Shown in pieces: positions 1-15,823 of a stretch of 19,746 nucleotides of DNA; position 1 is the stretch's first letter, and each line of letters begins with the position of its first letter. The stretch lies in the IMG/VR virus record IMGVR_UViG_2541047849_000002. One strand, given 5' to 3'. A model generated the notes under the pieces. That model searched no databases. It had not been told where the DNA came from and worked only from the letters and a program-made list of their open reading frames with translations. Position numbers and translations under genes: made by a program. The DNA comes from a virus. Its lineage: Duplodnaviria; Heunggongvirae; Uroviricota; Caudoviricetes.

Positions 1-1164
1 TTACGCCTTCTTTATATCCTCCATAATTCCAGAGTGGGACATATTTGGGACATTATCACCAAAAATGTCGTCTATTTTCCTCGCATGCTCTGTCAAATGA
101 TTAGGCGCAAGGTGAGCATACCTACGAACCATTTCTATGGACTCCCATCCGCCCATTTCCTGAAGCACTGATAATGGGACGCCTGACTGAATCAGCCAGC
201 TTGCCCAGGTGTGTCTGAGGTCATGGAAACGGAAATCTTCAATTCCTGCACGACGACAAGCTGATAGCCATGATGTCTTGCTGTCGATGCGCATCTTCCT
301 GACCGCAGGCGTTGATGTTCCATCTGCTCGCTTAGCCGCCTTGGTATGTACAAACACCCATTTGTGATGCTTGCCTATTTGATCACGCAACACTTTACAG
401 GCGGAATCGTTCAGCGCCACACCAATGGCGCGGTTTGATTTGCTCTCTTCTGGATTCACCCAGGCAACTCGTCGCTGCATGTCGATTTGTTGCCATTCCA
501 GATTTATGATGTTCGACTTTCTCAGACCAGTTGCCAGCGCAAACTTGACGACAGATTTCAGTGGTTCGGGGCACTCATCAATAAGGCGTTTTGCTTCCTC
601 CTTTTCCAGCCATCTGACTCGCTTGTTTCTGACCGCTGGTATCTTGATGACAGGCGCTTTTTCCAGCCACTTCCAGTCGCGTTCTGCAGCACGGAGAATG
701 GCCTTTATCATGGCAAGATGCTTTGCCTTTGTCTGAGTTGATACTGGCTTTGGTTCATAAACAGGCGGTTCTTTACCTTTCCTGATGGCGGCCTGAACTT
801 TCTGTTTCCATATTTCTTTCGTCTTTCTGTTATGCATTCTGCTTACAGCAGAGTAAATCTTTGCCTCCGAGATATCTTTAAGCCTTATACCCTCAAAATG
901 TTCAAGCCAGAACTCAATCCGGCTTTTATCTGAATCGAGAGATTTTTTATCAGCTTTTTCCTCAAGCCATCTTAGGCAGGCCTCTTCAAAAGTGACATCA
1001 GGTAAATCCCCTAGCTTTTCTACTCGCCAGAGTTCTGCTTTTCGCTTGTCGTGCAACTCCTGAGCTTGCCGCTTGTCCTTTGTGCCAAGAGATTCCTTAA
1101 TTCGTTTCCCGCCCGGGAGCGAATACGAGGCATACCATATTTCATTTCTGCGGAAGAGTGACAT
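1..1164 (-). CDS. intD: Phage tyrosine integrase (DLP12-type), 387 aa
   Basis: Complete minus-strand ORF, ATG at 1164-1162 and TAA at 3-1. C-terminal catalytic region [10 protein letters not shown] ... RRYAHL fits the tyrosine recombinase signature. Translation matches E. coli IntD as I recall it. Confidence 0.95.
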
Positions 1165-1391
1165 TTTCTTTCCTCTGTTATGCCATCACCCGCGCTCACC
1201 TGGACAGTATGCAGCGGAGACTGAAGCGCCGCAATGCAGGCTTGCCGTGTTGTGAGGTAAGGAGATTTTGGCTTGGTTGGATCTTTACGTGTTGCCTGTA
1301 GGCGGCCTGTTCGTATCCAGTTGGTGGCGGTTGGTCTGGATATCTTAAGAAACTGACAGGCCTCATCGAGTGTGAGGCTGTATGATTCCAT
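1020..1391 (-). CDS. xisD: Excisionase-like HTH protein (Xis/AlpA type), about 123 aa with an unusually long C-terminal tail overlapping int
   Basis: Minus-strand ORF directly upstream of int. ATG at 1391-1389 is preceded by a GAGGT Shine-Dalgarno. N-terminal [26 protein letters not shown] resembles the Xis/AlpA helix-turn-helix. The frame runs about 145 nt into int, so it may be frameshifted or degenerate. Confidence 0.5.
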
Positions 1392-1641
1392 GGTTACCTC
1401 TGCTTTTTGAACGCATGTCACGTAACTTCTTAATGTGTTCTGCCGTTTCGATCTCTTCTGCTATCCGATCTGCATCAGCTTTATTCACAGGTTCAAAGTC
1501 ATGATTAAAGCGGAACATGCTGGCGATACATGTTCTGCCTTTTCGGATGTAGTGAACTTTGTTGTGGGTAGAACGCAGGATTTTGCAGGGAGTGCCGTGG
1601 TGGTCGACGTACCAGGTGTTAGGCAAAATGATTCTGAACAT
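1363..1641 (-). pseudogene. exoD: C-terminal remnant of a lambda-type exonuclease (exo); 5' part deleted
   Basis: Minus-strand frame ending ...HYIRKGRTCIASMFRFNHDFEPVNKADADRIAEEIE aligns loosely with the C-terminal ~60 residues of lambda Exo (...[33 protein letters not shown], recalled). No N-terminal exo sequence is present, and the frame abuts the start of O. Confidence 0.4.
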
Positions 1642-2461
1642 TTTTACACCTCAGTTGGCCGGATTAACACAGCACCAGCTTCTGGTCTTTCTGGCTGTCA
1701 TGCGCAAAACATATGGCTTTAATAAAAAACTGGATTGGGTTAGCAACGAGCAACTTTCCGAATTAACCGGGATATTGCCGCACAAGTGTTCTGCTGCAAA
1801 AAGTGTTCTGGTAAAGCGTGGGATTTTTATTCAGAGCGGGCGGAATACCGGCATTAATAATGTGGTCAGTGAATGGTCAACATTACCCGAATCAGGTAAG
1901 AAAAATAAAGTTTACCTGAAAGAGGTAAATTTACCTGAATCAGGTAAAAAAAGTTTACCCAAATCAGGTAAAGGCGTTTACCCGAATCAGGTAAACACAA
2001 AAGACAAACTAACAAAAGACAATATAAAACCTTTTTCGTCCGAGAATTCTGGCGAATCCTCTGACCAACCAGAAAACGATCTTCCTGTGGTGAAACCGGA
2101 TGCTGCAATTCAGAGCGGCAGCAAGTGGGGGACAGCAGAAGACCTGACCGCCGCAGAGTGGATGTTTGACATGGTGAAGACCATCGCGCCATCAGCCAGA
2201 AAACCGAATTTTGCAGGGTGGGCTAACGATATCCGCCTGATGCGTGAACGTGACGGACGTAACCACCGCGACATGTGTGTGCTGTTCCGCTGGGCATGCC
2301 AGGTCAACTTCTGGTCCGGTAACGTGCTAAGTCCGGCCAAACTCCGCGACAAGTGGACCCAGCTCGAAATCAACCGAAACAAGCAACAGGCTGGCGTGAT
2401 AGCCGGCAAACCAAAACTCGACCTGACGAACACTGACTGGATTTACGGGGTGGAGCTATGA
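1628..2461 (+). CDS. O: Replication initiator protein O (lambdoid); divergent N-terminal iteron-binding domain, lambda-like C-terminal domain
   Basis: LAVMRKTYGFNKKLDWVSNEQLSELTGILPHKCSAAKSVLVKRGIF parallels the lambda O N-domain. The C-terminal ~110 aa (...WANDIRLMRERDGRNHRDMCVLFRWACQ...WIYGVEL) matches the lambda O C-domain as I recall it. Stop overlaps the P start (ATGA at 2458-2461). Start taken as ATG 1628; the ORF track's 1559 is a TTG. Confidence 0.8.
   Translation: MILNIFTPQLAGLTQHQLLVFLAVMRKTYGFNKKLDWVSNEQLSELTGILPHKCSAAKSVLVKRGIFIQSGRNTGINNVVSEWSTLPESGKKNKVYLKEVNLPESGKKSLPKSGKGVYPNQVNTKDKLTKDNIKPFSSENSGESSDQPENDLPVVKPDAAIQSGSKWGTAEDLTAAEWMFDMVKTIAPSARKPNFAGWANDIRLMRERDGRNHRDMCVLFRWACQVNFWSGNVLSPAKLRDKWTQLEINRNKQQAGVIAGKPKLDLTNTDWIYGVEL
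1883..1994. repeat. Replication origin iterons: five 17-bp dyad-symmetric repeats (TTACCYGAATCAGGTAA) inside O, followed by an AT-rich stretch to about 2035
   Basis: Copies at 1883-1899, 1912-1929 (variant centre), 1931-1947, 1955-1971 and 1978-1994, then an A/T-rich tract at 1995-2035. Same architecture as ori-lambda, which lies within O. Confidence 0.7.
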
Positions 2462-3159
2462 AAAACATCGCCGCACAGATGGTTAACTTTGACTGTGAGC
2501 AGATGCGCCGGATCGCCAACAACATGCCGGAACAGTACGACGAAAAGCCACAGGTACAGCAGGTAGCGCAGATCATCAACGGTGTGTTCAGCCAGTTACT
2601 GGCAACTTTCCCGGCGAGCCTGGCTAACCGTGACCAGAATGAACTGAACGAAATCCGCCGCCAGTGGGTTCTGGCTTTCCGGGAAAACGGGATCACCACA
2701 ATGGAACAGGTTAACGCTGGAATGCGCGTAGCCCGTCGGCAGAATCGACCATTCCTGCCATCACCCGGGCAGTTTGTCGCCTGGTGCCGGGAAGAAGCAT
2801 CTGTTAACGCCGGGCTGCCAAACGTCAGCGAGCTGGTTGATATGGTTTACGAGTATTGCCGGAAGCGTGGCCTGTATCCGGATGCAGAGTCTTATCCGTG
2901 GAAATCGAACGCGCATTACTGGTTGGTTACCAACTTGTACCAGAACATGCGGGCCAATGCGCTGACTGACGCGGAATTACGGCGCAAGGCTGCCGATGAA
3001 CTGACCTGTATGACAGCGCGAATTAACCGTGGTGAGACGATACCTGAACCAGTAAAACAACTTCCTGTTATGGGCGGTAGACCTCTAAATCGTGCACAGG
3101 CTCTGGCGAAGATCGCAGAAATTAAAGCTAAGTTCGGACTGAAAGGAGCAAGTGTATGA
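2458..3159 (+). CDS. P: Replication protein P (DnaB helicase loader), 233 aa
   Basis: Translation MKNIAAQMVNFD...AKIAEIKAKFGLKGASV is close to identical to lambda P over its full length as I recall it. Coupled to O and ren by overlapping stop/start codons. Confidence 0.95.
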   Translation: MKNIAAQMVNFDCEQMRRIANNMPEQYDEKPQVQQVAQIINGVFSQLLATFPASLANRDQNELNEIRRQWVLAFRENGITTMEQVNAGMRVARRQNRPFLPSPGQFVAWCREEASVNAGLPNVSELVDMVYEYCRKRGLYPDAESYPWKSNAHYWLVTNLYQNMRANALTDAELRRKAADELTCMTARINRGETIPEPVKQLPVMGGRPLNRAQALAKIAEIKAKFGLKGASV

Positions 3160-3458
3160 CGGGCAAAGAGGCAATTATTCATTACCTGGGGACGCATAAG
3201 AGCTTCTGTGCACAGGACGTTGCCGCGGTAACAGGCGCAACCGTAACCAGCATAAATCAGGCTGCGGCTAAAATGGCGCGGGCAGGAATCCTGGTCGTTG
3301 ATGGTAAGGTCTGGCGAACGGTGTATTACCGGTTCGCTACCAGAGAAGAACGGGAAGGAAAGGTGAGCACGAATCTGATTTTTAAGGAGTGTCGCCAGAG
3401 TGCCGCGATGAAACGCGTATTGAGGGTATATAAAAGAACATCAATGGGTACACAATGA
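3156..3458 (+). CDS. ren: Ren-like protein, 100 aa; last ~8 residues differ from lambda Ren
   Basis: MTGKEAIIHYLGTHKSFCAQDVAAVTGATVTSINQAAAKMARAGILV... matches lambda Ren until about codon 91 and then diverges (...KRVLRVYKRTSMGTQ). This marks the left edge of the inserted island. Confidence 0.8.
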   Translation: MTGKEAIIHYLGTHKSFCAQDVAAVTGATVTSINQAAAKMARAGILVVDGKVWRTVYYRFATREEREGKVSTNLIFKECRQSAAMKRVLRVYKRTSMGTQ

Positions 3459-3525
3459 TGAAACAGGTGAGTTGATTTCAAACTGTAGTACAATTCTCTC
3501 CAGTTTGAACAGGAAAGAATATGCT

Positions 3526-3858
3526 ATGAACCCTTATATTTATCTTGGTGGTGCAATACTTGCAGAGGTCATTGGTACAACCTTAATGAAGTTTTCAGAA
3601 GGTTTTACACGGTTATGGCCATCTGTTGGTACAATTATTTGTTATTGTGCATCATTCTGGTTATTAGCTCAGACGCTGGCTTATATTCCTACAGGGATTG
3701 CTTATGCTATCTGGTCAGGAGTCGGTATTGTCCTGATTAGCTTACTGTCATGGGGATTTTTCGGCCAACGGCTGGACCTGCCAGCCATTATAGGCATGAT
3801 GTTGATTTGTGCCGGTGTGTTGGTTATTAATTTATTGTCACGAAGCACACCACATTAA
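3526..3858 (+). CDS. emrE: Small multidrug resistance efflux transporter EmrE, 110 aa
   Basis: MNPYIYLGGAILAEVIGTTLMKFSEGFTRLWPS...LSRSTPH matches EmrE. AGGAAAG Shine-Dalgarno at 3511-3517. Four hydrophobic segments. Confidence 0.95.
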   Translation: MNPYIYLGGAILAEVIGTTLMKFSEGFTRLWPSVGTIICYCASFWLLAQTLAYIPTGIAYAIWSGVGIVLISLLSWGFFGQRLDLPAIIGMMLICAGVLVINLLSRSTPH

Positions 3859-3889
3859 AAATAATTTGTTTTTAAACGACTAAAATATG

Positions 3890-3930
3890 GAGGCTCTTAT
3901 ATTTATATGAGCCTCGTTTTATGCTTTTTG
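3890..3930 (+). terminator. Putative intrinsic terminator downstream of emrE
   Basis: Inverted repeat GAGGCTC (3890-3896) / GAGCCTC (3909-3915) followed by GTTTTATGCTTTTTG. Confidence 0.5.
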
Positions 3931-4113
3931 TTAATGTCTTTATTTTTTATGTATTCTTTTGTGCTTTCAAGATTATGGCGTGAGAAAATTGCAATACGAT
4001 TATTGTTGTATATTCAAGATAATGTGACCTTAATTGTCTTTTTAAATAAAAATTAAACAAAAGTTATATCCCACCACTAAGGTTTATAAAAGCATACGTT
4101 AGCAGGTGTCACC

Positions 4114-5640
4114 ATGAAAAAAGCCATAGCATATATGCGATTTTCATCACCAGGTCAGATGTCTGGCGACTCATTGAACCGACAGAGAAGACTTATTGCT
4201 GAATGGTTAAAGGTAAATAGTGATTATTATCTTGATACCATAACATATGAAGATTTAGGATTAAGTGCATTCAAAGGAAAGCATGCACAATCAGGAGCTT
4301 TTTCGGAATTTTTAGATGCTATAGAGCATGGTTATATATTGCCAGGAACTACATTGTTAGTTGAAAGTTTGGACAGACTTTCAAGAGAAAAAGTCGGTGA
4401 AGCGATTGAGCGTCTGAAATTGATTTTGAATCACGGTATTGATGTTATAACTCTTTGCGATAATACAGTCTATAATATTGACTCTTTGAATGATCCATAT
4501 TCATTAATAAAAGCCATACTTATAGCACAAAGGGCAAATGAAGAAAGCGAGATAAAGTCAAGTCGGGTTAAATTATCATGGAAGAAAAAACGGCAGGATG
4601 CACTGGAGTCAGGCACGATTATGACGGCGTCTTGTCCGAGATGGCTCTCATTGGATGACAAAAGAACAGCTTTTATTCCAGACCCCGACAGGGTGAAAAC
4701 GATTGAGCTAATTTTTAAACTCAGGATGGAAAGGCGATCATTGAATGCAATAGCCAAGTATTTAAATGATCATGCTGTAAAAAATTTCTCAGGCAAAGAA
4801 AGTGCATGGGGGCCTTCTGTAATTGAAAAATTATTAGCGAATAAAGCTCTGATAGGTATATGCGTACCTTCATATCGTGCAAGAGGTAAAGGAATAAGTG
4901 AAATCGCTGGCTATTATCCCAGAGTCATATCAGATGATTTGTTTTACGCTGTGCAGGAAATTCGGTTGGCACCTTTTGGTATTAGCAATAGTAGCAAAAA
5001 TCCTATGTTGATAAATCTACTTCGAACAGTTATGAAGTGCGAGGCTTGTGGTAATACCATGATTGTTCATGCGGTATCTGGAAGTTTGCATGGCTATTAT
5101 GTTTGTCCGATGAGAAGACTGCATCGATGTGACAGGCCATCAATAAAGAGAGATTTGGTTGATTATAATATCATTAATGAGTTGCTTTTTAATTGTAGTA
5201 AAATCCAACCAGTTGAAAACAAGAAAGATGCTAATGAAACTTTAGAGTTGAAAATTATTGAGCTCCAGATGAAAATTAATAATTTAATTGCTGCATTATC
5301 TGTTGCGCCTGAAGTTACCGCTATAGCAGAAAAAATCAGAGTATTAGATAAAGAATTACGAAGGGCTTCGGTATCATTAAAAACTTTGAAGAGTAAAGCG
5401 GTGAGTTCACTTGGTGATTTTCATGCTATTGACTTAACCAGTAAAAATGGGCGAGAGCTATGTCGTACACTTGCCTATAAAACATTCGAAAAAATCATAA
5501 TCAATACAGATAATAAAACCTGTGATATCTATTTTATGAATGGCATTGTTTTTAAACACTATCCTTTAATGAAAACAATATCCGCCCAGCAGGCGATAAG
5601 TACTCTCAAATATATGGTTGATGGTGAGGTTTATTTTTGA
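4114..5640 (+). CDS. ybcK: Large serine recombinase (YbcK type), 508 aa
   Basis: N-terminal resolvase-type catalytic domain (AIAYMRFSSPGQ ... LLVESLDRLSRE), a Cys-rich zinc-ribbon segment (CEACGNTMIVH...YYVCPMRRLHRCDRP) and a coiled-coil region. AGGTG Shine-Dalgarno. Visibly AT-rich coding sequence. Confidence 0.9.
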   Translation: MKKAIAYMRFSSPGQMSGDSLNRQRRLIAEWLKVNSDYYLDTITYEDLGLSAFKGKHAQSGAFSEFLDAIEHGYILPGTTLLVESLDRLSREKVGEAIERLKLILNHGIDVITLCDNTVYNIDSLNDPYSLIKAILIAQRANEESEIKSSRVKLSWKKKRQDALESGTIMTASCPRWLSLDDKRTAFIPDPDRVKTIELIFKLRMERRSLNAIAKYLNDHAVKNFSGKESAWGPSVIEKLLANKALIGICVPSYRARGKGISEIAGYYPRVISDDLFYAVQEIRLAPFGISNSSKNPMLINLLRTVMKCEACGNTMIVHAVSGSLHGYYVCPMRRLHRCDRPSIKRDLVDYNIINELLFNCSKIQPVENKKDANETLELKIIELQMKINNLIAALSVAPEVTAIAEKIRVLDKELRRASVSLKTLKSKAVSSLGDFHAIDLTSKNGRELCRTLAYKTFEKIIINTDNKTCDIYFMNGIVFKHYPLMKTISAQQAISTLKYMVDGEVYF

Positions 5641-5751
5641 GTAATAATCACTTTTCCAACCGTGCTATAGTAAGAAAGTTAGGTAAGTACAATAAAAGTA
5701 TCTATCCTGAACGAAGCGTCCTGAGCTATGGTTTTACTATAGGGACTGCCA

Positions 5752-6075
5752 ATGGATGCTGGCGTTCCCGTTCTAGCAGTTCAACAATTCCCAATCACAA
5801 AACAATTCACTGATAACGAACTTTGCACACTCGCCTGGTTATGGCGAGCAGGGAATGTGATGTTAATTGCCTACCAGAACGTTACTCATCTTCTTCAGGA
5901 TGCGGAGCATGGTGAGGCTGGTCACTTCACTTCCATCGAGCAAGAATATCCCCAGAGACTCAACAGAGCGCGAGCAATCCTCGCCCGAGAAACGGCACAT
6001 GTAAAACTTCAGCCGTGGCAGGATGATAAGTGGAGTCAAGTATTGCCGCATTTACCTCAGAATCTGTTTCAATAA
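5752..6075 (+). CDS. Hypothetical protein, 107 aa, no recognisable family
   Basis: ORF with ATG and a weak AGGGA Shine-Dalgarno. Base composition by eye is less AT-rich than the flanking ybcK and HNH genes. Could be a gene fragment. Confidence 0.3.
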   Translation: MDAGVPVLAVQQFPITKQFTDNELCTLAWLWRAGNVMLIAYQNVTHLLQDAEHGEAGHFTSIEQEYPQRLNRARAILARETAHVKLQPWQDDKWSQVLPHLPQNLFQ

Positions 6076-6093
6076 AGGCGCTAGTTAGTAAGG

Positions 6094-6119
6094 CTTCCGT
6101 CATTCTGCGATGACGGAAG
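6094..6119. other. Perfect 10-bp-stem hairpin (CTTCCGTCAT-tctgcg-ATGACGGAAG) with no U-tract
   Basis: Inverted repeat read directly, 19 nt downstream of the 107-aa ORF stop. May be a terminator, RNA stability element or recombination-site remnant. Confidence 0.3.
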
Positions 6120-6249
6120 TGCGGGCTGCGTACGGGAGAGCAATTGCATGAATAATATAAATATTCCGCTCACTCCATATAGCGATTTCTGATACAAACT
6201 TATCTATTGTGGTAAAATTATAGAAACAAACTTATAGCGTACTAACCAT

Positions 6250-7032
6250 ATGGACAATATTAATAAACACGGGCTCTCAAGAAGAATACCTGAGACAATA
6301 AAACGTCAGATAAGGCAAAGGTGCGGCTTTGGCTGTGTAATTTGTGGATTTGGATTTTATGATTATGAGCATTTTAAACCTGACTTCGTTGATGCCAAAA
6401 TACATGATCCGAATGGAATGACACTTCTTTGCTCCCAATGCAATCAAAAAAGAGCTCGTGGTAGACTTTCAGCACAGACAGTGGAAATAGCTGACAGAAA
6501 TCCCAAGTGCTTACAGGCTGGTTTTGCAAATGAAATGTTTGATTTTCATAATGAGCCTATAACAGTAAAATTTGCAGGAGTGACGTTTCATAACTGTCAA
6601 AATTTGATTGTAGTCAACGAACAACCCATTCTTTCTGTGAAACCTTCACCCATACCACATGGACCGATGCTTTTATCAGGAATTTTCTGTAATTCTATTG
6701 GTAAGGAGACTTTACTGATAGATGAAAATGAATGGAAAGCTAAATCAGACAATTGGGATGTGGAGTGTACCGGCCCGCGTATAACAATACGACGTGGGCC
6801 AGGAGAGTTTGCCCTCGTTCTAAAAATGGAACCTCCAACAGGATTGATTGTTGAGCGTCTTGATATGTTGTATGAAGGGGTCAGGATGAAAGGAGATAAA
6901 GATCTGCTGGAAGTTTCGATTAATGGAGGTCCCTTGCACAGATGGCAATCATGCTCAATGTCAAATTGCCATACAGGGCTTGCGATTCAGGGCGGTATTA
7001 GAGCTGCTAATGATCCTTTGTATTGCGCCTAA
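6250..7032 (+). CDS. HNH-nuclease-domain protein, 260 aa, with an uncharacterised ~185-aa C-terminal domain
   Basis: N-terminal CGFGCVICGF...YDYEHFKP...NGMTLLCSQCNQKRA fits the HNH motif (Cys pair, catalytic His, Asn, second Cys pair). The rest has no family I recognise. Possible extended -10 promoter (TGgTAAAAT) about 30 bp upstream. Confidence 0.6.
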   Translation: MDNINKHGLSRRIPETIKRQIRQRCGFGCVICGFGFYDYEHFKPDFVDAKIHDPNGMTLLCSQCNQKRARGRLSAQTVEIADRNPKCLQAGFANEMFDFHNEPITVKFAGVTFHNCQNLIVVNEQPILSVKPSPIPHGPMLLSGIFCNSIGKETLLIDENEWKAKSDNWDVECTGPRITIRRGPGEFALVLKMEPPTGLIVERLDMLYEGVRMKGDKDLLEVSINGGPLHRWQSCSMSNCHTGLAIQGGIRAANDPLYCA

Positions 7033-7074
7033 ATCCACTAAATTGATTTTCAACAATCAACTTGCCATAATTAA

Positions 7075-7103
7075 GTCACCGGAGTTTGAACTCCTCCGGT
7101 GAC
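7075..7103. terminator. Strong hairpin, putative terminator/insulator between the island and ninB
   Basis: GTCACCGGAG (7075-7084) pairs with CTCCGGTGAC (7094-7103), a perfect 10-bp stem, followed by TTCTG. Confidence 0.45.
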
Positions 7104-7224
7104 TTCTGCGCTAAACGGGGACGTTTATGCGCACATACAATCCAACCTCTCTTCTCCATTCACAGATGCAGAAATGCACCTGCGATATTTTGCATCCAGC
7201 GTTTGATCTCTGCGGAGGTGAAGC

Positions 7225-7680
7225 GTGAACCTCCCACAAGATGGTATCAAATTGCATCGCGGTAACTTCACCGCTATCGGTCGGCAGATCCAGCCTTATC
7301 TGGAGGACGGCAAATGCTTTCGCATGGTGCTTAAACCGTGGCGCGAGAGACGCAGTCTTTCCCAGAATGCACTCAGCCACATGTGGTACAGCGAAATCAG
7401 TGAATACCTCATCAGCAGGGGTAAAACGTTCGCCACTCCAGCTTGGGTAAAAGATGCTCTCAAACACACTTATCTCGGTTATGAAACCAAAGAACTGGTT
7501 GATGTCGTAACCGGTGAAATCACCACCATTCAGTCATTACGTCATACCTCCAATCTTGATACCGGAGAGATGTATGTCTTCCTGTGTAAGGTTGAAGCCT
7601 GGGCGATGAATATTGGCTGCCACCTGACTATTCCGCAGAGCTGCGAGTTCCAGCTGCTGCGCGACAAGCAGGAGGCGTAA
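7225..7680 (+). CDS. ybcN: NinB-family recombination protein (YbcN), 151 aa
   Basis: GTG start with GGAGG Shine-Dalgarno. [15 protein letters not shown]...[20 protein letters not shown] matches YbcN and the NinB core motif. Confidence 0.9.
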
Positions 7681-7850: not shown

Positions 7851-8133
7851 TTTGAGAAAAGCAGCGCGTGGTCGGGAATGCCAGGTAAGAATCCCTGGCG
7901 TATGTAATGGCAACCCTGAAACGTCTGTACTGGCACATATCCGGCTGACTGGATTGTGCGGCACCGGTACCAAACCGCCAGACCTGATTGCCACCATTGC
8001 ATGTTCTGCCTGCCACGACGAAATCGACCGCCGCACACATTTTGTCGATGCTGCATATGCAAAAGAATGCGCGCTGGAAGGTATGGCGAGAACACAGGTT
8101 ATCTGGCTGAAAGAGGGGGTTATTAAGGCGTGA
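7843..8133 (+). CDS. ybcO: YbcO, putative Cys-rich metal-binding nuclease, 96 aa
   Basis: ATG at 7843 with AAGGAGG Shine-Dalgarno, overlapping the ninE 3' end. [23 protein letters not shown]...[13 protein letters not shown] matches YbcO. Confidence 0.85.
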
Positions 8134-8492
8134 ATACCTACAGCATCACATTACCCTGGCCTCCGAGCAATAATCGCTATTACCGCCATAATCGCGGGCG
8201 CACGCACGTCAGCGCAGAGGGGCAGGCATACCGCGATAACGTCGCCCGAATCATTAAAAACGCAATGCTGGATATCGGCCTGGCTATGCCTGTGAAAATC
8301 CGCATTGAGTGCCACATGCCGGATCGCCGTCGCCGTGACCTGGATAATCTGCAAAAAGCCGCTTTTGACGCACTCACTAAAGCAGGTTTCTGGCTGGATG
8401 ATGAGCTGGTCGTTGATTACCGCGTTGTGAAGATGCCTGTTACCAAAGGTGGGAAGCTGGAACTGACCATCACTGAACTGGGAGATGAATGA
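8130..8492 (+). CDS. rusA: Holliday junction resolvase RusA, 120 aa
   Basis: GTG start overlapping the ybcO stop. [31 protein letters not shown]...[11 protein letters not shown] matches RusA. Confidence 0.95.
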
Positions 8493-8629
8493 TGTTTGAG
8501 TCTTATATGGCAGAACGTCTTCGCCACCGCTGGATGCGCCTGCGCTTATATCGTTTCCCCGGTTCTGTTTTGACCGATTACCGAATACTGAGGAATTACG
8601 CCAAAACCCTGACAGGAGCAGGAGTATGA
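8489..8629 (+). CDS. ylcG: Small protein YlcG, 46 aa
   Basis: ATGATG start overlapping the rusA stop; translated manually as [46 protein letters not shown]. Confidence 0.55.
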
Positions 8630-8714
8630 AGTCAGAGATAACAATCAACTAATACTGTTTTATTGATTTTTGCTTGTAATTGGCGTTCTGGTCTGATTTT
8701 TGTGGAGTAAGTTG

Positions 8715-9098
8715 ATGCGTGATATTCAGATGGTTCTTGAGCGTTGGGGAGCGTGGGCGGCTAATAATCATGAAGATGTGACCTGGTCGTCCATTGCCGC
8801 CGGTTTTAAGGGATTAATTCCTTCAAAAGTAAAATCTCGCCCGCAATGTTGTGACGATGACGCGATGATCATTTGCGGGTGCATGGCCCGTCTGAAAAAG
8901 AACAACAGCGATTTGCACGATTTATTAGTAGATTATTATGTAGTCGGTATGACATTCATGTCACTGGCAGGTAAGCATTGCTGCTCTGATGGTTATATCG
9001 GGAAAAGGTTACAGAAGGCTGAGGGCATAATTGAAGGGATGTTAATGGCATTAGATATCCGGTTAGAGATGGATATCGTTGTTAATAACTCTAATTAA
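8715..9098 (+). CDS. quuD: Late-gene antiterminator Q homolog, 127 aa
   Basis: ATG at 8715 with GGAG Shine-Dalgarno. [24 protein letters not shown]... with a Cys-rich zinc-binding region; matches QuuD. Confidence 0.85.
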
Positions 9099-9287: not shown

Positions 9288-10370
9288 TTAGAACTGATAC
9301 ACCAGACCTACAGCGACGATGTCGTCGGTATCAATACCAGCTGTTTTGGTAAACTTACTATCGTCAATTAAGTTGATTTTGTAATCAACAAAAGTGGACA
9401 TGTTTTTATTAAAGTAGTAAGTAGCACCGACATCGACATACTTGACTAAGTCTCGGTCACCATGAACACCAAGGTCTTTACCTTTTGACTGAAGGTAAGC
9501 AACAGATGGTCGCAGACCGAAGTCAAACTGATATTGTGCTACTGCTTCAAAGTTTTGTGCTTTGTTTGCAATATGGTTATTACCAAAAACGGTCATATTC
9601 TGAGTTTCAGAATATGTGGTAGCCAGATAGATATTGTTCGCATCATATTTCAGGCCTGCAGCCCATACTTCCGCATTTTTGCCGGAGGCATTGAATTTGC
9701 TCTTACCATAGGCGACCTGACCGTCAGTGCGATCTGATTTAGCATAGGTTGCACCCACGCCGAATCCTTCATACTCATAAGTAGTGGAGAAACCGAAACC
9801 ATCACCATTGGCTTCAGTTACGTCAGTGCGGTCATTTTTACCCTGATACTGAGCAGCAAAGTTCAGGCCATCGACCAGACCAAAGAAGTCGTTGTTACGA
9901 TAGGTTGCAACACCAGTGGTGCGACCAGTCATGAACACATCTGTTTGGGTCCAGGTATCGCCACCGAATTCTGGCAGAACGTCAGTCCACGCACCGATGT
10001 CGTATGCTACACCGTAGTTACGGCCGTAATCGATTGAGCCGTAGTCACCGAATTTCAGGCCTGCAAATGCAAGACGGGTTTTGTCTTTGGAGGAACCTTG
10101 AGATTCAGCGCGGTTGCCTTTGAATTCATATTCCCACTGACCGAAACCAGTCAGTTGATCGTTGATTTGGGTTTCACCTTTGAAGCCAAGACGGGCATAA
10201 GTAGTATCACCATCATCTGCATCGTTAGAGGAAAAGTAGTGCTTGGCATTAACTTTCCCGTACAGATCCAGCTTGTTACTGTCTTTATTATAAATTTCAG
10301 CTGCCTGAGCAGACATCGCCATCAGTACTGATGCAGCTACAGCAGAAATTGCCACTGTTAATTTTTTCAT
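9288..10370 (-). CDS. nmpC: Outer membrane general porin (NmpC/OmpD type), intact, 360 aa
   Basis: Signal peptide ending AQA, beta-barrel porin sequence throughout, C-terminal VYQF. AAGGG Shine-Dalgarno. Matches NmpC. Confidence 0.95.
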
Positions 10371-13396: not shown

Positions 13397-15823
13397 ATGG
13401 AAGTCAACAAAAAGCAGCTGGCTGACATTTTCGGTGCGAGTATCCGTACCATTCAGAACTGGCAGGAACAGGGAATGCCCGTTCTGCGAGGCGGTGGCAA
13501 GGGTAATGAGGTGCTTTATGACTCTGCCGCCGTTATAAGATGGTATGCCGAAAGGGATGCTGAAATTGAGAACGAAAAGCTGCGCCGGGAAGTTGAAGAA
13601 CTGCGGCAGGCCAGCGAGACAGATCTCCAGCCAGGGACTATTGAGTACGAACGCCATCGACTTACGCGTGCGCAGGCCGACGCACAGGAGCTGAAAAATG
13701 CCAGAGACTCCGCTGAAGTGGTGGAAACCGCATTCTGTACTTTCGTGCTGTCGCGGATCGCAGGTGAAATTGCCAGTATTCTCGACGGGATCCCCCTGTC
13801 GGTGCAGCGGCGTTTTCCGGAACTGGAAAACCGACATGTTGATTTCCTGAAACGGGATATCATCAAAGCCATGAACAAAGCAGCCGCGCTGGATGAACTG
13901 ATACCGGGGTTGCTGAGTGAATATAACAGCGCACAGGCGGCAGCGTCCTCGCAGACTGCATCGGCAAACTCCGCGACAGCAGCCAAAAAATCAGAAACCA
14001 ACGCGAAAAACAGCGAGACAGCCGCAAAGACGAGCGAAACCAACGCAAAGTCCAGCCAGACGGCAGCGAAAACCAGCGAAACGAATGCCAAAGCCAGTGA
14101 AACTGCGGCGAAAAATAGCCAGAATGCAGCAGCCGAAAGCGAGAGCGCGGCAGCCGGTTCTGCGACTGCAGCAGCTGGATCAGCAACTGCTGCGGCTAAC
14201 AGCCAGAAAGCAGCGAAGACGAGCGAAACTAACGCAAAGTCCAGCCAGACGGCAGCGAAGACCAGCGAAACAAATGCCAAAGCCAGCGAAACTGCGGCGA
14301 AAAGCAGTCAGGATGCAGCAGCCGAAAGCGAGAGTGCTGCAGCTGGTTCTGCAAGTGCGGCGGCTGCTTCTGCCACTGCATCAGCAAACAGTCAAAAAGC
14401 TGCAAAAACCAGTGAAACCAATGCAAAGACAAGCGAGACTGCAGCGGCGAACTCGGCGCAAGCATCGGCAGCAAGCCAGACAGCAGCTAAAGCAAGTGAG
14501 GATGCAGCCAGAGAGTATGCAAGCCAGGCAGCAGAGCCGTATAAATATGTCTTACAGCCACTGCCTGATGTGTGGATACCGTTTAACGATTCACTGGATA
14601 TGCTTGCTGGCTTTTCGCCTGGTTATAAGCAAATAACCGTAGGTGATGATGTTATTAAAATGCCATCCGATAAGGTTGTTAGCTTCAAACGCGCATCAGG
14701 TGCAACATACATTAATAAATCAGGTGTATTAACCGTTGCTGAAGTTGACGAACCGCGATTTGAACGAGAAGGTTTGCTGATTGAAGGACAGAGAACAAAC
14801 TATTTCAGAAATTCAAATACACCAGAAGCATGGAATAACACGGGTAGTGTGTCTGTTGAGTCGTTCGACAGTGATAAGGGGTTTAACTATGGAAGGATAA
14901 CTGTTATCAATGAAAATCCGACAGCACAAGGATATCAGGCAATTGCTGTAAACACGAATGATGCTTACACCTGCCCGGCAGGTTCTTATACGACGATATC
15001 GTGTCTGACGAAAAGTGATAATTCCCGGTGTCGTGCAAGGTTCGGAAAAATGTCTGATAATGGTGCGTTTGTTTTTCATTCAGATGCAGTTCTGGATCCT
15101 GTTACGGGAAATGTTGTTCATGGAAATAATGTGACGGTGACGGCAGAAAGAGTCGGTGAATGGTGGTTGTTTACCGCCACTCTTTTTGCAGATGCGGAAA
15201 TGATAATCAGCTCAAGATTTGAAATCCTGGCGATGCCTGGAATCAGTATTATCCCCAATGGCTCTACGTTAGATATTGCGATGCCTCAGGCGGAGATTGG
15301 GTCGTACAGGACGTCATTTATCATTACTGAAGGGGCTCCTGGCACTCGCTCCAGCGACATGGTGACAATACCTGTAAGAAACAATATTCACCGATTACCA
15401 TTCAGTGCTCTTGTTGAAGTTAATAAAAACTGGGATATCCCTCCCAGCAAATCACCATTAATCTTTAATGTTAAAGATTATCAGGAAAATGGTCTGTTCA
15501 CGCATGGATTCCGTGGTAATAATTTCTCTGATGCCGGTTCTCCTTTTATTTCTATGGGAGGGTGTAATAAATATGTGGCAACAACCCAGAGGAAAATCAT
15601 TTCAGGCTTCCGTTGTGGCGCTGATGGAGATGTTCAGGCCGTATGTAATGGTGAATTATCTGTTGCGGCAAAAACAACATGGACTTCAATTGTTCCACGG
15701 GCAGTATTGCGAATTGGAGGGCAGGGCACTAATGGGGAGTATCATCTTTTTGGTCATATCCGTAATCTGCGTATCTGGCATAAAGAATTAACTGATGCGC
15801 AAATGGGGGAGAGTATTAAATGA
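13397..15823 (+). CDS. Chimeric ORF, 808 aa: terminase small subunit Nu1 (residues 1-176) fused in frame to the shaft and C-terminal receptor-binding part of a side tail fibre
   Basis: Residues 1-176 (MEVNKKQLADIFGASIRTIQNWQEQGMPVLRGG...PGLLSEY) match lambda Nu1, which continues IEQSG-stop. Here the frame continues into Ala/Ser/Thr-rich SETNAK repeats and a C-terminal jelly-roll-like domain (...GEYHLFGHIRNLRIWHKELTDAQM). Junction at about 13922-13927. Confidence 0.8.
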   Translation: MEVNKKQLADIFGASIRTIQNWQEQGMPVLRGGGKGNEVLYDSAAVIRWYAERDAEIENEKLRREVEELRQASETDLQPGTIEYERHRLTRAQADAQELKNARDSAEVVETAFCTFVLSRIAGEIASILDGIPLSVQRRFPELENRHVDFLKRDIIKAMNKAAALDELIPGLLSEYNSAQAAASSQTASANSATAAKKSETNAKNSETAAKTSETNAKSSQTAAKTSETNAKASETAAKNSQNAAAESESAAAGSATAAAGSATAAANSQKAAKTSETNAKSSQTAAKTSETNAKASETAAKSSQDAAAESESAAAGSASAAAASATASANSQKAAKTSETNAKTSETAAANSAQASAASQTAAKASEDAAREYASQAAEPYKYVLQPLPDVWIPFNDSLDMLAGFSPGYKQITVGDDVIKMPSDKVVSFKRASGATYINKSGVLTVAEVDEPRFEREGLLIEGQRTNYFRNSNTPEAWNNTGSVSVESFDSDKGFNYGRITVINENPTAQGYQAIAVNTNDAYTCPAGSYTTISCLTKSDNSRCRARFGKMSDNGAFVFHSDAVLDPVTGNVVHGNNVTVTAERVGEWWLFTATLFADAEMIISSRFEILAMPGISIIPNGSTLDIAMPQAEIGSYRTSFIITEGAPGTRSSDMVTIPVRNNIHRLPFSALVEVNKNWDIPPSKSPLIFNVKDYQENGLFTHGFRGNNFSDAGSPFISMGGCNKYVATTQRKIISGFRCGADGDVQAVCNGELSVAAKTTWTSIVPRAVLRIGGQGTNGEYHLFGHIRNLRIWHKELTDAQMGESIK
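14030..14407 (+). repeat. Tandem duplication of a 189-bp (63-codon) unit within the tail-fibre shaft, with partial related units on both sides (about 13975-14480)
   Basis: Unit 1 at 14030-14218 and unit 2 at 14219-14407 are near-identical (TSETNAKSSQTAAKTSETNAKASETAAK...ANSQKAAK). Confidence 0.85.

Follow-up and report, generated by a model that had tools for sequence, protein, structure and literature searches.

A cargo gene of a DLP12-like cryptic prophage encodes a putative HNH nuclease with an obligately coupled all-beta domain and a possible role in defence

EcoKMcrA (PDB 6ghc) is a Type IV modification-dependent HNH restriction enzyme encoded by the e14 cryptic prophage of Escherichia coli K-12. 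A second HNH protein, DS-7 ('SVIR', WP_225403053), emerged from the DefensePredictor screen of E. coli; it was given a DS number there as a single-gene system of 368 amino acids (aa), in which HHpred finds an N-terminal Cap5-like HNH domain followed by a non-catalytic, baseplate-like DUF2634 (PMC13092281). DS-7 shows that an HNH domain joined to an odd C-terminal domain can form a one-gene defence. These two proteins offer the closest working analogies for the gene considered here, which lies in a stretch of viral DNA of 19,746 nucleotides (nt), IMG/VR record IMGVR_UViG_2541047849_000002, referred to hereafter as the window. The gene fills a variable slot in a DLP12-like cryptic prophage, and its product couples a predicted HNH nuclease domain to an all-beta C-terminal domain. 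The best explanation that we can offer, at a probability of roughly one half, is that it encodes a self-contained defence or exclusion nuclease, as its genomic context suggests.

The closest known systems all differ from it. In EcoKMcrA the reader is N-terminal and the HNH domain C-terminal, whereas the order is reversed in the window protein, and identity in the aligned region is 11%. The Type IV enzymes McrA, TagI, ScoMcrA and VcaM4I carry a fused modified-base reader; the window protein, in contrast, has no recognised reader and did not match any Type IV model in PADLOC-DB v2.0.0, the set of defence models used here, which holds systems up to 2023. It resembles these enzymes in being encoded by a solitary nuclease gene with no cognate methyltransferase. 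No sequence kinship with DS-7 was detectable (hhalign probability 0.4%), and the C-terminal domains differ. Cap5, from the cyclic-oligonucleotide-based antiphage signaling system (CBASS), has a C-terminal SAVED domain that senses cyclic nucleotides and works with an adjacent cyclase. Where Cap5 (PDB 7rwk and 8fmf) joins SAVED to its HNH domain, the window protein has an unrelated all-beta C-terminus and its gene has no conserved neighbour. PtuB of the Septu system (TIGR02646) works with the PtuA ATPase encoded alongside it; no ATPase gene lies beside the window gene or is conserved beside its relatives, and the match to PtuB was below threshold. Type II restriction-modification (R-M) systems pair the nuclease with an adjacent methyltransferase of constant family, whereas the methyltransferases found near some relatives of the window protein belong to unrelated families and the window slot has none.

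The features of the locus are collected in Table 1. The open reading frame (ORF) of interest is a real, intact gene. Its product is identical to WP_001301145 of E. coli E24377A, labelled 'hypothetical protein' in RefSeq, and the exact protein is on record from 985 contigs. That the ORF did not arise by chance follows from 307 full-length homologues, which share 50-79% identity with it and come from Enterobacteriaceae, Burkholderiales, Pseudomonas and Vibrio, from an end-to-end match to PHROG 6544 (function unknown; E = 3e-141) and from the low nonsynonymous divergence (dN 0.14-0.33) that separates the gene from its diverged alleles at saturated synonymous divergence (dS). The dN/dS ratio is not quantifiable because the synonymous sites are saturated; judging from this pattern of substitution, the gene is under purifying selection. 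It is AT-rich, as the initial annotation of the window had said, with a GC content of 40.7% and a GC content at third codon positions (GC3) of 32%, compared to 48.5-50% GC for the prophage backbone and a GC3 of 59% for ybcN.

Table 1. Coordinates of the HNH gene, its predicted domains and the surrounding elements in the window, with two homologues in Vibrio integrons.
Feature	Coordinates	Strand	Remarks
Variable cassette relative to K-12 DLP12	5650-7042	.	blastn break points 5649 and 7043
Hairpin, 12-base-pair (bp) stem, no T-run	6093-6120	+	directly after the P22AR remnant; 6076-6135 folds at -26.6 kcal/mol, z -3.1
Sigma-70-like site, CTGATA-18-TAAAAT	6189-6218	+	extended -10 TG; 32 nt upstream of the ATG; 9/12 matches
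HNH gene (ORF)	6250-7032	+	ATG start; 260 aa plus stop codon
Predicted HNH (beta-beta-alpha-metal) nuclease domain	6262-6501	+	residues ~5-84
Predicted all-beta C-terminal domain	6523-6987	+	residues ~92-246; ~16 strands
N160-E161-W162...N168-W169-D170 element	6727-6759	+	best-conserved element of the beta domain; two adjacent strands by secondary-structure call
Lambdoid-backbone junction element	7043-7228	+	common to K-12 and phage 82; followed by ybcN
Promoter-like site in the junction element	7043-7071	+	inside the conserved backbone
Hairpin, 12-bp stem, no T-run	7073-7105	+	-20.4 kcal/mol, z -4.7
orf33/ylcH	7127-7228	+	in the junction element
Homologue in V. cholerae (locus L186)	750-1499		Vibrio cholerae repeat (VCR)-type repeats at 605-728 and 1495-1618
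Homologue in V. sinaloensis (locus L045)	5272-6204		between repeats 5133-5253 and 6202-6324; 11 attC-like repeats

An HNH signature had been read in the N-terminus, and the motifs quoted for it are present: CGFGCVIC at residues 25-32, YEHFKP at 39-44 and NGMTLLCSQCNQKRA at 55-69. Two CxxC pairs, C29-x2-C32 and C61-x2-C64, would provide the four zinc ligands. The general base is predicted to lie within E40-H41 (codon 6370-6372), and N65 (codon 6442-6444) is the predicted metal ligand. In an alignment of 194 relatives, C29, C32, H41, H52 and C61 were conserved at 97-99% (H41 itself at 97%). Position 64 was C in 85% and H in 15%, position 40 was E, H or D, and position 65 was H in 78% and N in 16% (94% for the two together); the window protein carries N, the minority residue. 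Because the catalytic and zinc residues are conserved among these relatives, the catalytic apparatus looks intact.

The score of the protein against Pfam PF01844 was 14.4 bits (E = 0.043), below the gathering threshold of 21.4 bits. The best E-value among 36 close relatives was 0.0069, and a distant relative (P0166) cleared the threshold with 25.0 bits. NCBIfam gave no match for the protein, and Foldseek returned weak HNH matches only from the PDB. Judged by motif and predicted fold, the protein is a member of the HNH superfamily though it falls below the Pfam threshold. The HNH domain is basic, with an isoelectric point (pI) of 9.4 (family median 8.8). A second zinc site formed by C25, H52, C87 and C116 was considered and dropped, as C25 (70%), C87 (76%) and C116 (36%) are not conserved family-wide.

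The initial annotation also held that the rest of the protein belongs to no known family, and here too the searches agreed: neither Pfam, NCBIfam nor the PDB sequences contained a match for the C-terminal ~170 residues, and no fold was matched specifically, Foldseek finding nothing in the PDB for the beta domain. A match to gp160 in the sequence profile search of the PDB (E = 0.12) was dismissed as spurious. The most conserved residues of the family sit in this domain, outside the catalytic motif. Among the 194 relatives, D170 was conserved in 100%, N160 in 99%, W169 in 92% and W162 in 87%, and the nearby R181 in 86%. The element formed by N160, W162, W169 and D170 is a candidate binding or regulatory pocket, on the evidence of its conservation. 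Unlike the HNH domain, the beta domain is acidic (pI 5.5; family median 5.3).

What did not survive was the description of this region as a fused sensor-like domain. A profile of the beta domain found 1548 cluster representatives (at 50% identity) with E <= 1e-3 among 1.84 billion proteins. In nearly all of the best 150 of these 1548, the domain begins close to residue 85 and the HNH domain immediately precedes it; the shorter matches look like fragments. Pfam scans of ten relatives that were longer or built differently showed the beta domain on no other type of effector. Since it nearly always follows the same HNH domain and holds the best-conserved residues of the family, we interpret the beta domain as one of two integral, functional halves of the enzyme and not as a sensor module acquired by shuffling. 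The variable modules, as far as the alignment indicates, are instead further C-terminal extensions, which are present in about one quarter of the aligned relatives and reach up to 430 aa; one contains TPR repeats, one a CxxCxxCC domain, and the others were unrecognised. The family spans Proteobacteria, Cyanobacteria, Chloroflexi, Planctomycetes, Bacteroidota, Firmicutes and one archaeal metagenome-assembled genome. What appears to be new in the protein is the obligate coupling of an HNH nuclease to a partner domain without precedent.

The gene occupies an exchangeable position in its prophage. It had been assigned to a variable cargo slot of lambdoid prophages, and the comparison with K-12 bore this out, as DLP12 of K-12 carries ybcL-ybcM in exactly the interval of the variable cassette. 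The slot proper (~6076-7042) has the HNH gene as its sole content, and homology resumes at exactly 7043 in all E. coli comparators. The backbone block that begins there (7043-7680) was found in ~2950 of 5426 complete E. coli genomes and the HNH gene in 80 of the 5426. Diverged alleles of the gene, at 73-75% nucleotide identity, lie in the same slot beside backbone that has diverged with them. Other E. coli strains have a HEPN-domain gene with a small partner in the slot; in strain 67-1 it holds a phosphoribosyltransferase-like gene and a NADAR gene, and in strain LR-06 a DUF4145 gene and a gene for the theta subunit of DNA polymerase III (Pol III theta). By these comparisons the slot upstream of ylcH/ybcN is a cargo hotspot. 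A second backbone beside ninB was proposed for the identical E. coli copies and dismissed, since the gene next to them proved to be ybcN, whose product has its match in the NinB/Orf PHROG.

Outside E. coli the family is mobile and sparsely distributed. A search of 185,579 species genomes matched 226 stretches scattered over many phyla. In IMG/VR, 104 viral contigs carried a relative, most of which we take to be prophages predicted in isolate genomes, and the 79 that were analysed gave 55 different pairs of neighbours. The neighbours that recurred were early-region accessory genes, namely DinI, Pol III theta, NinB/YbcN, P2 gpA and several unrelated DNA methyltransferases. The methyltransferases within a few genes of prophage homologues were phrog_954, phrog_56, phrog_116/23072, an MT-A70 protein (Klebsiella) and a 703-aa DNA methylase (Pseudomonas). 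Among 50,697 deposited phage genomes one carried the family, a Klebsiella prophage, and no virulent phage did. Klebsiella phage ST846-OXA48phi9.2 is an example of an inducible lambdoid prophage with the gene. The initial annotation had presented the gene as a one-gene unit, and this was upheld: no family of neighbours was common to more than 3 of 86 loci, and the immediate neighbours in 80 species fell into 109 Pfam families, each seen at most twice. The gap to the upstream neighbour had a median of 146 nt, and homologues often stood beside oppositely oriented genes.

In the Enterobacter cloacae complex (L182-L185), a 75%-identical homologue comes after lambda O-P, and behind it lie two small ORFs and the gene for a 459-aa RES-domain protein. 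The prophage of one Enterobacter strain (L184) has eroded to int-xis-[HNH gene]-small ORFs-RES, which indicates that the cargo outlives the phage. In V. cholerae and V. sinaloensis the homologues (53% and 39% identity, respectively) each make up a single-gene integron cassette with attC/VCR repeats on either side; the window copy has no attC. In V. cholerae the cassettes adjoining the homologue encode a GNAT protein and a glyoxalase. Two recent sources describe integron cassettes as repositories of genes for phage defence (PMC12614218; bioRxiv 10.64898/2026.03.17.712381). At the end of an Alcaligenes faecalis prophage (L014), a 245-aa HNH protein (7983-8720) and a DUF4238 protein (9352-10338) adjoin the homologue, and the 245-aa protein matched the PADLOC Type IV restriction model (E = 3.5e-7), making it an McrA-like candidate. 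By its content the group looks like a small defence-like cargo cluster. The second HNH gene of this cluster was ruled out as a paralogue (hhalign probability 1.7%).

Three other explanations for the gene were weighed. One is that it is a selfish, free-standing homing endonuclease, which would cut a site in relatives without the gene and be copied in by repair, to no benefit of the host. Homing endonucleases of the I-HmuI type have an N-terminal HNH domain, the classic homing fold, and a second domain at the C-terminus. The window protein has the same order of domains; its gene, likewise free-standing, is AT-rich and lies between conserved backbone genes with sharp junctions, and DNA homology to the nearest homologue outside E. 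coli begins at the start codon and stays inside the ORF (6249-6957). However, homing endonucleases carry a NUMOD, IENR1, helix-turn-helix (HTH) or zinc-finger module and are associated with an intron, an intein or a constant target, whereas the window protein has no Pfam match beyond HNH and its acidic C-terminal domain matches no known DNA-binding module of such enzymes. The initial annotation had itself named such a module, with an intron or intein context, as a finding that would refute the defence reading, and our search turned up neither. The family also has no constant insertion site, given 55 contexts in 79 prophages and no flanking target shared in the 86 loci. Its near absence from deposited phages and its occurrence as an integron cassette argue in the same direction, as do catalytic residues that are intact over many phyla and a low dN at saturated dS, which do not resemble a cycle of gain, decay and loss. 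We consider homing improbable.

A role for the phage itself is also unlikely, if slightly less so than homing. The product might be a nin-region enzyme, either a structure-specific nuclease like RusA or NinG/Rap or one that attacks the DNA of the host or of a competitor during lytic growth. The enterobacterial lambdoid copies do lie among ninB/ybcN, ybcO and rusA and the genes for DinI, Pol III theta and DNA methyltransferases, the protein weakly matches HNH families in PHROG, NinG/Rap (E = 0.52) among them, and the diverged alleles share both their slot and the divergence of the backbone beside it. Nevertheless, the gene is retained in cryptic prophages that can neither replicate nor package; it also occurs in integron cassettes and as chromosomal singletons beside housekeeping genes, and nearly all sequenced phages lack it, lambda, P22 and the HK97-type lambdoids among them. 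The upstream gaps and oppositely oriented neighbours are likewise unlike the packing of backbone operons. Least probable of the three is that the gene is not autonomous, being the nuclease half of an R-M pair or a toxin with its partner elsewhere. Several prophages do carry a DNA methyltransferase gene only a few genes away from the homologue, which may be functional or may reflect a shared accessory region, but these methyltransferases vary in family, distance and orientation, the window slot contains none, and the scarcity of shared neighbours in the 86 loci holds for any partner. The integron cassettes hold the HNH gene alone, and because the exact protein is present on 985 contigs, it is not lethal by itself.

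The reading as a defence or exclusion nuclease is favoured over these because the gene is self-contained, mobile, kept in decayed prophages and carried in sites known for defence cargo. Some neighbours of the family are defence-like as well: the McrA-like Type IV candidate in Alcaligenes, the RES-domain protein and, once each, Type I S, Type IV, HEC-06 and mad5. If the reading is correct, the product would be a two-domain DNA endonuclease, made up of a zinc-finger HNH half and an obligatory, family-specific acidic beta half, which would most likely guard the carrier cell or its prophage from incoming phage or from foreign DNA of other kinds. A surface containing N160, W169, D170 and R181 would let the beta domain gate or direct the nuclease. 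Like McrA, this domain might recognise something about the invading DNA, for instance a modified base or an unusual structure; alternatively, the acidic beta domain might keep the basic HNH domain inactive until a trigger derived from the phage binds. Cleavage of the DNA would then fall to H41, together with E40, N65 and a divalent metal. The enzyme would do without a partner, since no gene for a methyltransferase, an immunity protein or an ATPase is conserved beside its own. More tentatively, we suggest that the protein may be the founding member, as yet without a name, of a large family of immune nucleases that act as single proteins, in which the beta fold reads a phage cue through the N160/W169/D170 pocket and licenses the HNH domain, and which has spread as single-gene cargo by way of prophage hotspots and integron cassettes.

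A number of observations weigh against a defence function. The typical profile of a single-gene defence system, claimed in the initial annotation, is matched in part, by the HNH nuclease, the variable slot and the stand-alone gene, but no PADLOC model recognised the protein with significance, the only match being to PtuB (E = 0.04, 11.8 bits) over the HNH motif only. Nor was enrichment in defence islands demonstrated by the Pfam and PADLOC neighbour scans, which covered the 25 commonest families without a control set. Across the wider family, housekeeping genes make up many of the immediate neighbours. The other occupants of the slot are defence-like by annotation alone, and those of K-12, ybcL and ybcM, are not known defence genes. 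The beta domain resembles none of the known modified-base readers (McrA reader, SRA, PUA/EVE and SBD) or sensor folds, and its acidity is unusual for a domain that recognises DNA. A literature search by accession and identifier (WP_001301145, A0A377E6L8, phrog_6544 and others) found no phenotype for any member of the family. WP_001301145 was not among the listings searched in the DefensePredictor supplements; the candidates cloned in that study include an 'HNH1' of 301 aa (PMC13092281).

The signals around the gene add little to the case. The initial annotation gave the gene a promoter-like element of its own and a strong hairpin that closes it off. The sigma-70-like site upstream of the ATG is present, but promoter-like sites are no commoner in the region than in shuffled sequence (6 found, compared to 3.9 ± 2.1 in shuffles), and no Shine-Dalgarno sequence was visible upstream of the ATG. 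The downstream hairpin is real, but it lacks a T-run and, because it falls within the conserved block that starts at 7043, it is a part of the backbone rather than of the cargo gene. The promoter-like site and the hairpin are therefore not good evidence for an autonomous transcription unit.

If the defence reading is nevertheless true, the protein would represent a small nuclease system, of 260 aa, that works without a partner and whose recognition domain has no known fold; it would be a widespread system, yet one missed by the defence models used in this analysis. In prophages of the DLP12 and phage 82 types, the slot upstream of ylcH/ybcN would then be a defence hotspot worth mining, because other strains carry HEPN, phosphoribosyltransferase/NADAR and DUF4145 cargo in it. 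That one HNH lineage is tied, apparently obligately, to one beta domain also poses a tractable question of structure and function, namely the ligand of the beta domain. If the reading fails, the gene would be one more uncharacterised HNH accessory gene of a cryptic prophage.

The prophage that carries the gene consists of the integrase gene, a truncated O, P, ren, emrE and ybcK, then the slot, and on its 3' side ylcH, ybcN, ninE, ybcO, rusA, quuD, a porin gene, lysis genes, bor and a remnant of an Nu1-type terminase. At the far end are an AraC-family regulator (appY-like) and an omptin (ompT-like). The immunity/PR region and the head genes are missing from the window prophage, which retains only terminase and tail-fibre remnants; since it lacks that region, expression of the HNH gene would require a promoter nearby. 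An ORF that is a P22AR remnant precedes the slot, so that the flanking ORFs of the HNH gene are ybcK and this remnant on one side and ylcH and ybcN on the other. With one hairpin upstream and one downstream (Table 1), the gene is bracketed by two such structures. In phage 82 the inverted repeat that corresponds to the downstream hairpin lies ahead of orf33/ylcH, and its annotation names it as a possible binding site for a regulator.

Further observations concern individual genes near the homologues and in the window. In Paraburkholderia (L004), a 1987-aa UvrA-like protein with many ATPase-type Pfam matches is encoded at 1527-7490, directly upstream of the homologue and on the opposite strand. 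The ybcK gene of the window (4114-5640) is intact and encodes a large serine recombinase of 508 aa with Resolvase, Recombinase and Zn_ribbon_recom domains, whereas ybcK of E24377A has an internal stop. The P22AR remnant of E24377A contains an IS66 element that is absent from the window. Finally, an ORF of 808 aa at 13397-15823 begins with a complete Nu1 terminase small-subunit domain (residues 1-164), which is followed by ~640 residues with no Pfam match; presumably this ORF is a fused or rearranged remnant of packaging genes.

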